Shown: in pieces, positions 11,527-60,340 of the stretch | Position numbering within the stretch: position 1 is the first letter of the stretch | How the letters are laid out: each line of letters starts with the position of its first letter | Source: Eledone cirrhosa | Taxonomy: Eukaryota | Length of the DNA stretch: 64,000 nucleotides | Direction of reading: 5' to 3' | Assembly: GCA_964016885.1 (NCBI GenBank) | Contig: OZ024743.1 | Location: forward strand, 249,612,001 to 249,676,000 | The notes under the pieces: generated by a model | The model's database searches: none | The model's input: only the letters and a program-made list of their open reading frames with translations | Told to the model about the DNA's origin: nothing | Position numbers and translations under genes: made by a program

Positions 11527-12020
11527 AGTTTTAATATAGATGAGATTCTACAGGACTAGAACTGTTTCATTCTTTAGAAATCATCAGGAATCTGGGTTTC
11601 AAAAAATAAGTATGGTATTTATAGATCTCTACAAGGGGTAGGAGAGGGTGGGGAGTGGGATGGGTGTAGGTCATTGGATGATAGAAAATTCATTAAAAGC
11701 TAATTCTACAAAGCTATAGTTTATTTTTATTTTTAGAGTAACAAAGACAGAAAGAATTCTATAAACAGGTTCAGGATGGCATGCCAATCCTTATTATTAA
11801 GTTTCTCTTAAGCTAACAGGTGTCTATAAGATCAGTGGGGGTCAGTCATGGTAGAGAGATTTAAAGGAAAGGGAGATTCTTTAAAAGCTAAATTCTTTAC
11901 TAAGTGACAAAGGTTTAGAGAATTCTGTAGACAAATTCAAAATATTGAGTGCATATCTTACAATTATCCTCAAATTTCTCTTAAACTATTCAACTATATG
12001 CCAAAATCAACAGACACATT
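11527..12020 (-). mobile_element. Solo ~490 bp hammerhead-bearing non-coding element (retrozyme or Penelope pLTR-like) next to (TA)n
   Basis: Unique sequence between a TA tract and a CA/TA tract, containing a complete type I hammerhead on the minus strand. Confidence 0.6.
11543..11593 (-). ncRNA. Type I hammerhead ribozyme
   Basis: Minus strand reads AGATTC-CTGATGA-T-TTC-TAAA-GAA-T-GAAA-CAG-TTCTAGTC-CTG-TA|GAATCT. Stems I, II and III all pair; GUA cleavage triplet. Confidence 0.8.
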
Positions 12021-12456
12021 CACAAAACACACTCACTCACACACTCGCGCGCACCCATAAACACACACACATACACATATATATATACACACACACACAC
12101 ATATAAATATATATATATATATATACATACATACACATATAAATATATATATATACATATATATACATACAAGACATATATATATATATATATATACATA
12201 CACACATACACACATACATACACACATATGTAAATATATATATATATATATATATATATATATACACATACACACACACATATATATATATACACACACA
12301 CACACATACACATATATATACATATATACACACATACACACACACATATATATATACACACATACACCATACATACATATATCTGCATTGTATTGAGTAC
12401 CTTACTTACTGTGGTTACCTCCGATTCAACACGGAATAACGTACGTATATATATAT

Positions 12457-15220
12457 ATTTAATACAATAACAGAGAAAGCTTTAAGCTAAACTCTGACAG
12501 GCTACCATCTCACTCAACAAACATTAGGATATACGTTAGTATAATCCCAATTTTGTGTTTGGGGTGCTAACTATATGTATTTTGTGGAAAGCCAGTTGTA
12601 TTATTTTATATGAGATATAATTAAAATTAAAATATATCTCTCTTTCCAAACAATTGTTTCATTATAAGTTTTCTACAAGTTGGGAGAATGTTTCCGGTTT
12701 ATGTAGAAGCCTACATATTTTTCTGTAAGAACACATGCAGGTGGGCACTTATAAATCATCAGTGGAAGCCCATCAAACTTTGATATGAGAAAAAATTTCT
12801 TACCGCAGTTATTTTTCGTGTCAGCTAAGTTGTCCCTTCACGCATCATAATGACCGCCAAATTTGAAATTCCAGCAGTCTTTAGACTGAGGAATTTCACA
12901 GCGTCACGAAGCGGAAAAGGGAGGCAATCGCGAATCACAAGAAAGTAAAATAATATACACCTGGGTTAATTAGTTTTAAAAAAAAACAATATTAATCCTG
13001 CGCGTTAAGAACTCAATTAATTTAAAAAAAATAAATGTATGCATGTATTAATTACACACGCATATAGATATTTTCTTAGGCTAAAAACAGAGAAGTGATA
13101 CCTAAATAACAAACAATATCTCATAACAGTAATAAATACGGAAAGTTACGTTTAAAAGGTATCTGGAAATATAATTCTCTGGCCAAATCAAGAGTAAAAT
13201 ATTTAATACAATAAAAGAGAAAGCTTTAAGCTAAACTCTGACTGGCTACCATCTCACTCAACAAACATTAGGATATACGTTAGTATAATCCCAATTTTGT
13301 GTTTGGGGTGCTAACTATATGTATTTTGTGGAAAGCCAGTTGTATTATTTTATATGAGATATAATTAAAATTAAAATATATCTCTCTTTCCAAACAATTG
13401 TTTCATTATAAGTTATCTACAAGTTGGGAGAATGTTTCCGGTTTATGTAGAAGCCTACATATTTTTCTGTAAGAACACATGCAGGTGGGTACTTATAAAT
13501 CATCAGTGGAAGCCCATCAAACTTTGATATAAGAAAAGATTTCTTACCGCAGTTATTTTTCGTGTCAGCTAAGTTGTCCCTTCACGCATCATAATGACCG
13601 CCAAATTTGAAATTCCAGCAGTATTTAGACTGAGAATTTCACAGCGTCACGAAGCGGAAAAGGGAGGCAATCGCGAATCACAAGAAAGTAAAATAATATA
13701 CACCTGGGTTAATTATTTAAAAAAAAAAACAATATTAATCCTGCGTGTTAAGAACTCAATTAATTTTAAAAAAATAAATGTATGCATGTATTAATTACAC
13801 ACGCATATAGATATTTTCTTAGGCTAAAAACAGAGAAGTGATACCTAAATAACAAACAATATCTCATAACAGTAATAAATACGGAAAGTTACGTTTAAAA
13901 GGTATCTGGAAATATAATTCTCTGGCCAAATCAAGAGTAAAATATTTAATACAATAAAAGAGAAAGCTTTAAGCTAAACTCTGACTGGCTACCATCTCAC
14001 TCAACAAACATTAGGATATACGTTAGTATAATCCCAATTTTGTGTTTGGGGTGCTAACTATATGTATTTTGTGGAAAGCCAGTTGTATTATTTTATATGA
14101 GATATAATTAAAATTAAAATATATCTCTCTTTCCAAACAATTGTTTCATTATAAGTTATCTACAAGTTGGGAGAATGTTTCCGGTTTATGTAGAAGCCTA
14201 CATATTTTTCTGTAAGAACACATGCAGGTGGGTACTTATAAATCATCAGTGGAAGCCCATCAAACTTTGATATAAGAAAAGATTTCTTACCGCAGTTATT
14301 TTTCGTGTCAGCTAAGTTGTCCCTTCACGCATCATAATGACCGCCAAATTTGAAATTCCAGCAGTATTTAGACTGAGAATTTCACAGCGTCACGAAGCGG
14401 AAAAGGGAGGCAATCGCGAATCACAAGAAAGTAAAATAATATACACCTGGGTTAATTATTTAAAAAAAAAAACAATATTAATCCTGCGTGTTAAGAACTC
14501 AATTAATTTTAAAAAAATAAATGTATGCATGTATTAATTACACACGCATATAGATATTTTCTTAGGCTAAAAACAGAGAAGTGATACCTAAATAACAAAC
14601 AATATCTCATAACAGTAATAAATACGGAAAGTTACGTTTAAAAGGTATCTGGAAATATAATTCTCTGGCCAAATCAAGAGTAAAATATTTAATACAATAA
14701 CAGAGAAAGCTTTAAGCTAAACTCTGACTGGCTACCATCTCACTCAACAAACATTAGGATATACGTTAGTATAATCCCAATTTTGTGTTTGGGTGCTAAC
14801 TATATGTATTTTATGGAAAGCCAGTTGTATTATTTTATATGAGATATAATTAAAATTAAAATATATCTCTCTTTCCAAACAATTGTTTCATTATAAGTTT
14901 TCTACAAGTTGGGAGAATGTTTCCGGTTTATGTAGAAGCCTACATATTTTTCTGTAAGAACACATGCAGGTGGGCACTTATAAATTATCAGTGGAAGCCC
15001 ATCAAACTTTGATATAAGAAAAAATTTCTTACCGCAGTTATTTTTCGTGTCAGCTAAGTTGTCCCTTCACGCATCATAATGACCGCCAAATTTGAAATTC
15101 CAGCAGTCTTTAGACTGAGGAATTTCACAGCGTCACGAAGCGGAAAAGGGAGGCAATTGCGAATCACAAGAAAGTAAAATAATATACACCTGGGTTAATT
15201 AGTTTCTTTTTAAAACAATA
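12457..15220 (-). repeat. Tandem array of ~743 bp unit (3.7 copies) with one hammerhead per unit, flanked by (TA)n
   Basis: Unit starts at 12457, 13201, 13944 and 14687; TA tracts on both sides. Confidence 0.92.
12644..12767 (-). ncRNA. Type I hammerhead ribozyme with ~100 nt stem II (copy 1 of 4 in the 743 bp array)
   Basis: Minus strand reads TTCCA-CTGATGA-T-TTATAAG...CTTATAA-T-GAAA-C-AATT-GTT|TGGAA. Palindromic stem III ACAATTGT; GUU triplet. Confidence 0.75.
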
Positions 15221-15329
15221 TATATATATATATATATATATATTATATATATATATTATATATATATATATTATATATATATATTATATATATATATATA
15301 TATATATATATATATATATATATATATAT

Positions 15330-58848: not shown

Positions 58849-58921
58849 GAACCCTAACATATAATAATACATAAAGGAATCACAGATACAAGGTTCTAAA
58901 AACCTTCGCTAAGTACAAACC

Positions 58922-59620
58922 ACTACCTCCCTACGGACAACTGACGTTGCACACCAGGTCCGAACTCCCACTGGCATGGCTTCCATCTATCTCGCCCTCC
59001 CCATCTCTCTGTATTATGAGCAAATGGGGTCCCACATGCTGGCTGCCCTACCGCCCCGGCAGAATGGAGAAGGCGTTTCCATGGAGAATGGTAAGGGAGA
59101 TGCGCTGGAAAAACCATTTGATCTCGCGAGGCTCACACCTGCAGCTAGCCAGCTCAGCGCCTATAGTGGTAAGTAGGGAAGTAGCCCTAGGGCCAAGGAC
59201 ACCAGAAGTCTCCACTGCTAGGAGCATGACCGCAAACCTGTCGGAGAACAACCGGTACTTGGAAAGTTTGCCCTCCAGGTATCAAAAGTTGAGAGGGGCT
59301 GTGATACTCTAGGCAATGTGGTCTATACCAAGAGCAAATAGGAGGGGACCCAAAGGGTCACCTTGCTGGACCCCAGTGGCTGAAGGTATGACCATATCAG
59401 CAGCAAGGAGCATTCTCGGGGCTCCATATAACAGGTAGGCCAGTGGATAGGCAGAAGGGGCTTGGCTGAGGTAGGCATCGGGCAGATGGTCATGACGTAG
59501 GCAGTTGAAGGCATTCCTCGTGTCAAGCTTAACAATGGGGTGCCTGGAGTCCCTGGATGCCGGTTCTGGTGGGTAACTATTGAAGAACTGCCTGGTTGCA
59601 TGTGCAGGCCCCCTCAACTT
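58922..59620 (-). mobile_element. CRE-clade LINE fragment, internally deleted (RT piece fused to RLE piece)
   Basis: VKLDTRNAFN, GVQQGDPLGPLLFALGI, LAVETSGVLGP, WFFQRISLTILHGNA. Confidence 0.8.
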
Positions 59621-60140
59621 AAGAAAAGACAATATAAAATTTGCTGAGGAGAGGGAAGGTAGCAGTAACACTAGAAAAGACTAGAAAGGAAGAATCTTCA
59701 AAAAGATATACATAGACTGACATAGTGACCCGATCAAAATGAAATTTTGAACATATTAACATTAACAGCTATAATGGCACCCATCTCCCCCACCGACAAT
59801 AGAAATCGCCCTCCCCCTCCTGAAAAGTCAATCCTCAATATATTTTTAGACTAAAGTCAACGACCTTGCAACTTGCTATCAAACTTCCTTCTTGCTGTGT
59901 TGAATGTGTGTAGGTATATATCTATCTATCTATCTAAGGCGGGTAAAATTCCCGAGATCCATGGACGAGTTCTCTCCAGCGGTCTCTGTCCCTCATTATC
60001 GCTGCCATATATATATATATATATATATATATATATATATATATATATATATATATATATATATATATATATATATATATATATATATAGGTATATATAT
60101 ATATATATATATATATATATATATATATATATATATATAT

Positions 60141-60340
60141 ATAGGAACGAGTAGGACCCCGACGGCTGAGCTCAAGCCGTTTCGACGGCTAATTCTGGAC
60201 AGTCCAGAATTAGCCGTCGAAACGGCTTGAGCTCAGCCGTCGGGGTCCTACTCGTTCCTATTACCCACTCTACTACCCTAAGTATTGAGTACTTTGGTGC
60301 GTTATGGTCCACCTGGTTGCTTACCACATTTCCTTCGTTA
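60141..60340 (+). mobile_element. TA-flanked fragment with a perfect ~60 bp-arm palindrome containing the 3' half of a hammerhead
   Basis: Palindrome 60141-60261 centred on 60201; ccgtc-GAAA-CGGCT-TGAGCTC-AGCC-GTC|ggggtcc. Confidence 0.7.

Follow-up and report, generated by a model that had tools for sequence, protein, structure and literature searches.

Two-armed insertions of Penelope-like elements and hammerhead-bearing retrozyme-type repeats at (TA)n tracts in Eledone cirrhosa

Repeat families in the window

The window is a 64,000-nucleotide stretch of the Eledone cirrhosa genome (assembly GCA_964016885.1, contig OZ024743.1, positions 249,612,001 to 249,676,000 of the forward strand). It contains members of repeat families A, B, C, D, E and P, laid out as follows (window coordinates; the priming sites named are putative, and PLE stands for Penelope-like element).

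11464..11527, no strand: (TA)n target tract left of family D
11528..12381, minus: left arm of family D, made up of a coding PLE's hammerhead-bearing 483-bp 3' end (pLTR) and a microsatellite-rich upstream part; hammerhead at ~11543-11593; arm terminus at site D1
12382..12445, plus: short right arm ("tail") of family D; terminus at site D2
12455..15221, minus: family C, a 743-bp retrozyme-type unit present 3.7 times in a single arm; hammerheads with a long stem II, for example at ~13389-13510
15218..15330, no strand: interrupted (TA)n tract between families C and B
15330..17527, minus: left arm of family B, whose 485-bp unit is present 4.5 times; priming site Q1; hammerheads at 15400-15482, then every 485 bp
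17527..19581, plus: right arm of family B with 4.2 units; priming site Q2; hammerheads at 17858-17940, then every 485 bp
19579..19889, no strand: (TA)n tract with a repeated 7-8-nt interruption
34614..34790, minus: left arm of PLE family P; priming site R2
34790..36885, plus: right arm of PLE family P; priming site R1; 5'-truncated RT + GIY-YIG ORF at 34793-36364, then the 3' region; hammerhead-like core at ~36637-36664
41213..41238, no strand: (TA)13, the left target tract of family A
41239..47613, minus: left arm of family A, whose 467-bp unit is present 13.65 times; priming site P2; hammerheads at 41534-41578, then every 467 bp; the arm stops at the predicted ribozyme cut site
47612..49952, plus: right arm of family A with 5.0 units; priming site P1; junction with 2 nt of microhomology; hammerheads at 47816-47860, then every 467 bp
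60144..60200, minus: family E left arm, site E2, a truncated 3' end of another coding PLE
60200..60338, plus: family E right arm, site E1, with the 3' half of a hammerhead-like motif
60007-60143 and 60339-60372: (TA)n flanks of family E

The arrays of families A (41239-49952, 8.7 kb with antisense and sense arms together), B (15330-19581) and C (12455-15221) lie where the first-pass annotation had placed them, and all adjoin (TA)n. That annotation had listed four hammerhead-bearing units at (TA)n. The 467-, 485- and 743-bp units are indeed of retrozyme type and the 483-bp segment of family D does carry a hammerhead next to (TA)n, but the last, its "~490-bp unit", is a truncated PLE end.

To judge from their sequence, the 467-, 485- and 743-bp units are hammerhead-bearing retrozyme-type repeats, each a tandem, non-coding unit with one type I hammerhead. 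A pattern scan finds the type I core and stems in the 467, 485 and 483 units, with 0 matches in 20 shuffled windows, and the 743 unit has a type I hammerhead with a ~95-nt stem II. The stems of the 467 ribozyme and its relatives covary, with 89% of cells paired and two-sided changes at 10 of 13 pairs (0 of 500 shuffles), in a test whose input was 10 hand-picked sequences and whose structure was specified by the analyst. Predicted circular MFE folds of A and B contain the hammerhead stems. In Rfam the 467 unit has a single match, HH9 (37.7 bits), which is under the 52-bit cut-off, and the remaining units gave no useful match. No stop-to-stop frame of 100 aa lies inside the units of A and C, and the longest such frames in B are 103-115 aa. 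All three are dispersed multi-locus families whose arrays are without LTR layout. The search for their enzyme partner by sequence likeness failed, as they share no significant sequence with the ends of P, D and E, the PLE families sampled.

The 467 unit is also matched in sequencing runs of 16 organisms and one metagenome. Among four runs compared, X1 covers all, single-copy DNA included, at ~1% divergence (another individual of the same or a close species), whereas in X4, X5 and X6 mostly the high-copy repeats (PLE, unit A and SINE) are represented, with almost no single-copy DNA. Trace carry-over or relatedness accounts for the latter three as well as transfer would, so no horizontal transfer is claimed. 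No RNA run is listed among those matching the 467 unit, which speaks neither for nor against expression.

The element at 34.6-36.9 kb is, by its sequence, a member of a young, intact 4117-bp Neptune/Nematis-type PLE family, P. The family's single 1217-aa frame encodes a PLE RT (DKG-type motif, YVDD) and, at the C-terminal end, a GIY-YIG with CCHH and the linker CX2-5CxxC; these motifs are kept in alignment, and the type is assigned from them. Homologs of the P protein match RVT_1 and GIY-YIG domains; a Pfam search with P itself gave no match and a PDB search only weak RT matches (E 0.06-0.17). Partial tandems, an inverted 5' copy, a one-sided tail and the (TA)n target all occur among family P copies, in keeping with the inverted geometry at (TA)n noted earlier for this element. 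Its hammerhead-like motif shows the core and stem II without canonical stems I and III, and neither our scan nor Rfam matches it.

Family D and the 60.2-kb hairpin (family E) are truncated ends of coding PLEs, not retrozyme monomers, and neither is a tandem non-coding unit. No tandem copy of the "490-bp unit" occurs in the 20 genomic stretches examined, and the unit lies downstream of PLE RT fragments in loci L129, L130 and L138; family E is likewise found downstream of PLE ORF fragments. D had been taken for one-armed, its short sense arm at 12382-12445 having been missed. The antisense and sense arms reported for the hairpin at 60.1-60.3 kb are there, but it carries just the 3' half of a hammerhead-like motif.

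Arm polarity and the two putative priming sites

Two-armed loci with both ends seen always have an antisense left arm and a sense right arm (21 A, 14 B and 14 P loci). The polarity first noticed in the window thus extends to genomic copies, for the left arm only when the insertion is two-armed: one-armed 485-bp copies occur in either orientation (14 sense, 8 antisense). Scored by eye, 44 of 45 outer ends in family A and 50 of 50 in family B adjoin (TA)n. As candidate target-site duplications, interrupted-TA strings of at least 10 nt match on both flanks at 32 of 73 loci, against 15% of random pairs; pre-existing compound microsatellites give an equal signal, and no empty allele was encountered.

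Each family has two fixed putative priming sites, UA-rich, 45-110 nt apart and with a 1-8-nt overlap to (TA)n, and two-armed insertions almost always take one of each. Among the loci tabulated, which are the best-scoring, youngest candidates and in the case of P were partly chosen for being two-armed, same-site pairs number 0 of 20 in family A (9.3 expected, p=1e-5), 1 of 14 in B (5.8 expected, p=0.005; the exception is L099), 0 of 14 in P (p about 4e-4, hand calculation) and 0 of 7 in D; family E gave 19 E2+E1 loci and no E1+E1, with a query that forced an E1 arm. Site-pair counts exclude L084, whose left end falls outside the stretch, and L186 and L187, whose ends were not seen; also omitted are the older, first element of L070 and the third segment of L181. 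One insertion, L159, is a hybrid in which an arm of family C meets an arm of family A, using the C main site and the A second site, so two RNAs can serve one event. Arm lengths in two-armed loci are not correlated (rho 0.37, p=0.11, and -0.08), and that expectation was abandoned.

Near-perfect inverted repeats are hard to assemble (PMC8557442), and inversions and array lengths might in principle be assembly or long-read fold-back artefacts. We consider this very improbable: arm length, phase and start site differ by a fixed rule, the junctions are mostly not mirror points, the flanks run on in one orientation, and joints between opposite strands within the P element are present in short-read contigs from an independent sample (depths 23 and 13).

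Junctions, shared variants and the template

At 12 of 49 junctions neither arm is contained in the other, each holding sequence that the other lacks. Five of the 12 are PLE arms shorter than a unit (L173, L174, L176, L177 and L179), and slippage is therefore no explanation there. Microhomology of at least 2 nt is present in 21 of 37 junctions, against 16% expected. The containment of one arm in the other at 37 of the 49 junctions would fit priming from a single end, after which the first cDNA would be copied by fold-back or second-strand synthesis into a second arm that nuclease resolution ends at the tail site, with later growth by unequal crossing-over as in the 2026 preprint discussed below. 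Such a route would also account for the near-symmetric junctions (within 50 nt) of 5 of 14 P loci and most E copies, for the short snap-back insertions at some junctions, and for variants common to both arms. It is already disfavoured as a general route, and we rate it as improbable, since the 12 junctions with unique sequence in each arm include three near-symmetric P loci, and since a copied strand should often end at Q1, the best TA-like site, yet Q1+Q1 pairs are never seen in B. Later expansion moreover predicts blocks of intermediate-frequency variants, and just 11 of 158 variant-by-locus records are intermediate (88 are fixed and 59 single; the counts are not mutually independent).

Variants fixed in one arm are also fixed in the other in 57 of 59 cases (B locus L107 has one discordant variant), and variants found in just one sampled locus are common to both arms or to all units, the 4.1-kb PLE included. 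The 25 A arrays comprise 15 haplotypes and the 26 B arrays 11. The predicted ribozyme cut site was traversed 216 + 147 = 363 times with no indel within 10 nt, and template jumping there, for which no scars were found, was rejected. cDNA ends are weakly enriched at this site (A 5/40, p=0.03; B 1/28), with an exact end at the window's A junction only; stopping at the cut as a rule, weak in A and absent in B, was also rejected. A strand-biased A>G editing signature, present in A and reversed in B by eye, was dropped.

Both ends might prime, but not on one covalent circle: the template could be a linear multimer produced by reading through a homogeneous source array, a unit with terminal redundancy that the enzyme re-enters by strand transfer, or a pair of RNAs of one active source bound by a dimeric enzyme whose subunits differ in start site. 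One-of-each site use requires merely an asymmetric enzyme complex, L159 pairs sites of two families, the P ribozyme is non-canonical, and for the element PAc a multi-copy mRNA has been proposed and cleavage found unnecessary (PMC11167929). Linked variant blocks in L066 (where they have period 3), L071 and the window's B right arm are likewise not expected of a pure monomer circle. Nevertheless we regard such a template as unlikely, given the 363 scar-free passes, the weak enrichment of cDNA ends at the cut site, and the many haplotypes, each fixed over up to 34 units in both arms; as intermediate frequencies are nearly absent, a one-unit bottleneck must recur.

The one-of-each sites, the non-contained arms, the shared variants and the indel-free passes together favour priming by both target ends on one unit-length RNA. 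We think it probable that PLEs and hammerhead-bearing retrozyme passengers insert into (TA)n in this way, and that the RNA is probably circular. By analogy with known retrozymes, tandem copies would be transcribed and cut by the hammerhead to unit length, and the unit probably circularised (doubtful for P). A Neptune/Nematis-type GIY-YIG nuclease would open the observed (TA)n target; priming would begin at site 1 from one DNA end and, 45-110 nt off, at site 2 from the other; and each RT would circle the unit 0.1-19 times, as the arm lengths suggest, displacing the strand ahead. The two cDNA 3' ends, whose junctions have 1-7-nt microhomology or a short insertion, would be joined, perhaps by host end-joining, and filled in. 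Extension from one end alone would leave a one-armed array.

Implications and comparison with known systems

A broader proposal, to which we give somewhat less than even weight, is that PLEs (the 4.1-kb coding unit as well as their retrozyme passengers) share a general transposition route of their own, in which a dimeric RT-nuclease would prime both ends of a double-strand cut at two neighbouring sites of a single RNA circle, around which two polymerases would roll. If so, pseudo-LTRs, partial tandems, the inverted copy and the tail would all follow from a single step, as would the sudden origin of multi-kilobase satellites. Two-ended priming makes the long-unexplained shape of PLE-type insertions testable, as the footprint predicts exactly which two RNA sites are primed, one per DNA end on one molecule, and multi-turn products from a circle. 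If it is right, satellite-like arrays reaching 15.7 kb are born in single insertions, not by slow unequal crossing-over, and the PLE RT is a processive, strand-displacing enzyme. The E. cirrhosa genome holds very young families of both PLEs and retrozymes, including intact 1217-aa ORFs.

In L1 twin priming two target 3' ends prime on one RNA, giving antisense-then-sense arms with microhomology at the inversion point, and the arms are adjacent, non-overlapping parts of a linear poly(A) RNA. The present arrays have the same arm order and microhomology junctions, and the first-pass annotation's idea that both ends of a break prime on a circular or multimeric RNA gains from the polarity, fixed sites, non-contained arms, shared variants and microhomology; unlike those of L1 products, however, the arms share sequence, run over the unit many times, start at fixed sites, join (TA)n and are without poly(A).

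What had been put forward as a new candidate system is not one, since its geometry matches the published tandem, inverted and tailed footprint of PLEs (PMC8557442, PMC11167929). Published work already covers retrozymes, the inverted and tailed structure of PLEs, their preference for (TA)n and the existence of two RT start sites; the PLE tandem/inverted insertion route and the copying of animal retrozymes are stated open questions (PMC8557442, PMC7229834, PMC11167929). The one-of-each site rule was not found in the literature searched.

Like A, B and C, metazoan non-LTR retrozymes (Cervera and de la Pena 2020, PMC7229834; Li, Clavereau and Pollet 2026, bioRxiv 10.64898/2026.07.22.740005) are low-GC, non-coding tandem repeats whose units measure a few hundred bp and carry a single type I hammerhead; they are dispersed and coexist with PLEs. 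The 2020 paper (PMC7229834), in whose main text the word "inverted" is absent, proposed that a PLE or LINE RT turns a circle into tandem cDNA by target-primed copying. The preprint takes homology to the pLTR of an autonomous PLE as a retrozyme criterion, does not treat insertion ends in the part consulted, and invokes unequal crossing-over for local amplification, whereas the A and B arrays are two-armed, TA-anchored and apparently made at insertion.

The Neptune/Nematis EN+ PLEs (Craig et al. 2021, PMC8557442) share with P the RT, C-terminal GIY-YIG, CCHH and linker CX2-5CxxC, and with the present insertions the partial tandems, inverted 5'-truncated copy, one-sided tail and (TA)n bias; non-autonomous multicopy head-to-tail derivatives (Chlamys) were described there too. 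That work calls the PLE cycle "still undefined" and puts the tail down to nuclease resolution; here, by contrast, the tail is 45-110 nt, each arm uses strictly one site, and both arms may exceed unit length. In vitro, PAc, a PLE of the Poseidon clade, cuts and extends both strands of an AT-rich target, with two internal RT start sites bounding the tail, a predicted dimer and hammerhead cleavage dispensable (Frangieh et al. 2024, PMC11167929). Its start sites are equal between strands in pooled reads and not homologous to the target, the template is linear, and second-strand synthesis is assumed, whereas the sites described here are UA-rich, overlap (TA)n by 1-8 nt and are divided between the arms.

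Hammerhead units and coding Penelope-like elements

The inverted and tandem arrays that the first-pass annotation described for families A, B and C (retrozyme-type units in (TA)n, with arms antisense or sense to the ribozyme) are present by self-alignment and TRF. Its "490-bp unit", here D (483 bp), has in addition a short second arm absent from that description.

Family A, 467 bp: 13.65 units antisense and 5.0 units sense
Family B, 485 bp: 4.5 units antisense and 4.2 units sense
Family C, 743 bp: 3.7 units antisense
12382-12445, + strand: short sense arm of D

Type I hammerheads were found in A, B and D by a motif scan that gave no match in 20 shuffled windows, and that of C, with a stem II of about 95 nt, was read out of the scan output. 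D is the end of a Penelope-like element (PLE). In Rfam the only match was HH9 for family A, at a score under the Rfam cut-off. Alignment of the A ribozyme with nine relatives shows covariation in its stems. D is never tandem in the 20 stretches examined and lies downstream of PLE reverse transcriptase fragments in three loci, and is no retrozyme-like monomer; nor is the 60.2-kb hairpin (E), which comes from the truncated end of a different coding PLE and contains half of a ribozyme. The complete E motif (L032, L040, L049 and L053) has hammerhead-like stems and a non-canonical core, which reads CUGAGAA at three of these loci.

The coding PLE at 34.6-36.9 kb, P, has a non-canonical hammerhead-like motif and a tandem unit of 4117 bp, and its family includes 85 near-identical matches among those listed, many with open frames of ~1217 aa. 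Its homologs match the RVT_1 and GIY-YIG profiles, the closest named one being an Octopus vulgaris protein (68% identity), which suggests an octopod host. Alignment gave the motifs DKSG and RYVDD, a linker of the form CX4CxxC and a GIY-YIG domain of CCHH type. By the criteria of PMC8557442, P is, as judged from sequence, of Neptune/Nematis type.

About 20 more distinct hammerhead families are present in 1.16 Mb of TA-adjacent DNA (flanks of L031-L192), and L114 holds a 468-bp A-like array. Unit A also occurs nearly identically in sequencing runs of 15 other organisms and one metagenome; the three runs examined are suggestive of high-copy repeats carried over in traces, or of distantly related organisms.

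Neighbouring DNA

An array of ~700-bp units ending in (ATGT)n is found at 1-6611 and in L193, and reaches at least 10 kb to the left of the window; its in-window part has a period-3 higher-order pattern and terminates in (ATGT)173. A related solo copy lies at ~62550-63079, and by eye the 3' end of the unit is like that of the RTE-type LINE at 8191-11103. We take four further features to be the following:

23362-25089: hAT-like transposase frame, 575 aa
26006-26428, minus strand: possible SLC22-like exon
30157-31270: mariner-like fragments
37645-39152 and 40030-40166 / 41005-41212: Helitron-like relic (helicase- and protease-like fragments)

Pfam gave no match for the 23362-25089 frame or for 26006-26428. 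The Helitron-like relic has an inverted duplication, which ends at the TA tract used by family A. TA tracts beside insertions (15218-15330, 19579-19889 and many loci) often carry a periodic interruption that is identical on both flanks, which could be pre-existing or have arisen when the target end was copied reiteratively. At 60373-60520 and in L081 near 3640-3680 the flanking DNA forms perfect palindromes centred on (TA)n, as would be left by a TA end that folded back on itself and served as primer on its own strand.

Outer ends and arm junctions

The host genome is 3.0 Gb, and in five DNA searches the best 40 were scored of 215, 1903, 2722, 2434 and 291 candidates, respectively. The samples were 24 loci for A (from 150 of 256 rows), 35 loci for B out of the 39 that were listed, 20 stretches each for C and D, 30 loci for E, and 20 stretches for P, 11 of them selected for being two-armed. 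Without exception in the A, B and P samples, two-armed loci have an antisense left arm and a sense right arm, and their outer ends lie within (TA)n, as proposed from the window; the rule that the left arm is antisense fails for one-armed copies, which occur in both orientations. No second arm of its own family was found for C in its 20 stretches. The outer ends form two clusters per family, the presumed priming sites.

Outer-end sites (unit positions, or spacing between sites)
A: 228-234 and 297-303
B: 70-84 and 188-194
P: 216 and 259-274
D: spacing ~70 nt
E: spacing ~85 nt

Two-armed insertions as a rule use both sites once, one per arm. Such pairs make up 19/20 in A (the other involves a third site; same-site pairs 0, p=1e-5), 11/14 in B (two others involve a third site and one is a same-site pair; p=0.005), 14/14 in P and 7/7 in D, where the widely spaced pairs would have arisen in a single event; E has no same-site pair in 19 loci, but there the search query forced one arm. 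One-armed copies prefer a single site (A 4/4, B 21/22), and the largest insertion is 15.7 kb (33.6 units).

One arm might have been copied from the other by fold-back. At 12/49 junctions, five of them in P loci whose arms are shorter than one unit, each arm has sequence that is absent from its partner. Fold-back copying cannot yield such pairs, and both arms are very probably primary products. Microhomology of at least 2 nt is present at 21/37 junctions (expectation 16%) and insertions at 12/49. P junctions lie within 50 nt of symmetry in 5/14, and at the four of these with arms of equal length the downstream-primed arm is short by 12, 36, 0 and 15 nt, as if two polymerases had travelled in register.

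Template and comparison with known systems

In 57 cases a variant fixed in one arm was also fixed in the opposite arm; in two cases it was lacking there, in one of them through an alignment artefact. Among the variant records 88 are fixed, 59 are single and 11 are intermediate, with 15 haplotypes in A and 11 in B. Variants confined to one sampled locus extend through both arms in L096 (11/11) and L075 (16/16), and through every 4.1-kb unit in L188; 363 passes across the predicted ribozyme cut site contain no indel there. This recurrent one-unit bottleneck and seamless continuity are as expected from a circular template. Against a template of one unit length stand linked variant blocks (L066, of period 3, L071, and a set of three T>C changes in the right arm of B in the window), the uncorrelated arm lengths of two-armed insertions, and a hybrid at L159:2594-7275, the only one among the stretches scanned, in which an antisense C concatemer is joined through short microhomology and a hairpin to a sense A variant ending at P1, one of the A sites. 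The hybrid suggests that A and C use common machinery and that two RNAs occasionally serve one break.

In the mechanism we favour, both ends of the target break would prime copying and a single circular RNA would be the template for both arms. Two-ended priming, already proposed in the first-pass annotation, agrees with the use of one site per arm and with the 12/49 junctions, and is very probable; granted this, a single circular template is likely, and the two together are moderately probable.

The open-access main-text passages searched yielded no statement of a one-site-per-arm rule or of two-armed retrozyme concatemers. PMC7229834 defines animal retrozymes, demonstrates that they form circles and suggests that PLEs copy these by target priming; PMC8557442 describes PLE tandem, inverted and tail structures and (TA)n bias, calling the mechanism undefined; PMC11167929 shows extension on two strands and two start sites; and a 2026 preprint (Li, Clavereau and Pollet, bioRxiv 10.64898/2026.07.22.740005) ties retrozymes to PLE pseudo-LTRs and proposes unequal crossing-over. 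The feature is real and made of these known parts, and its mechanistic footprint is new and quantifiable.
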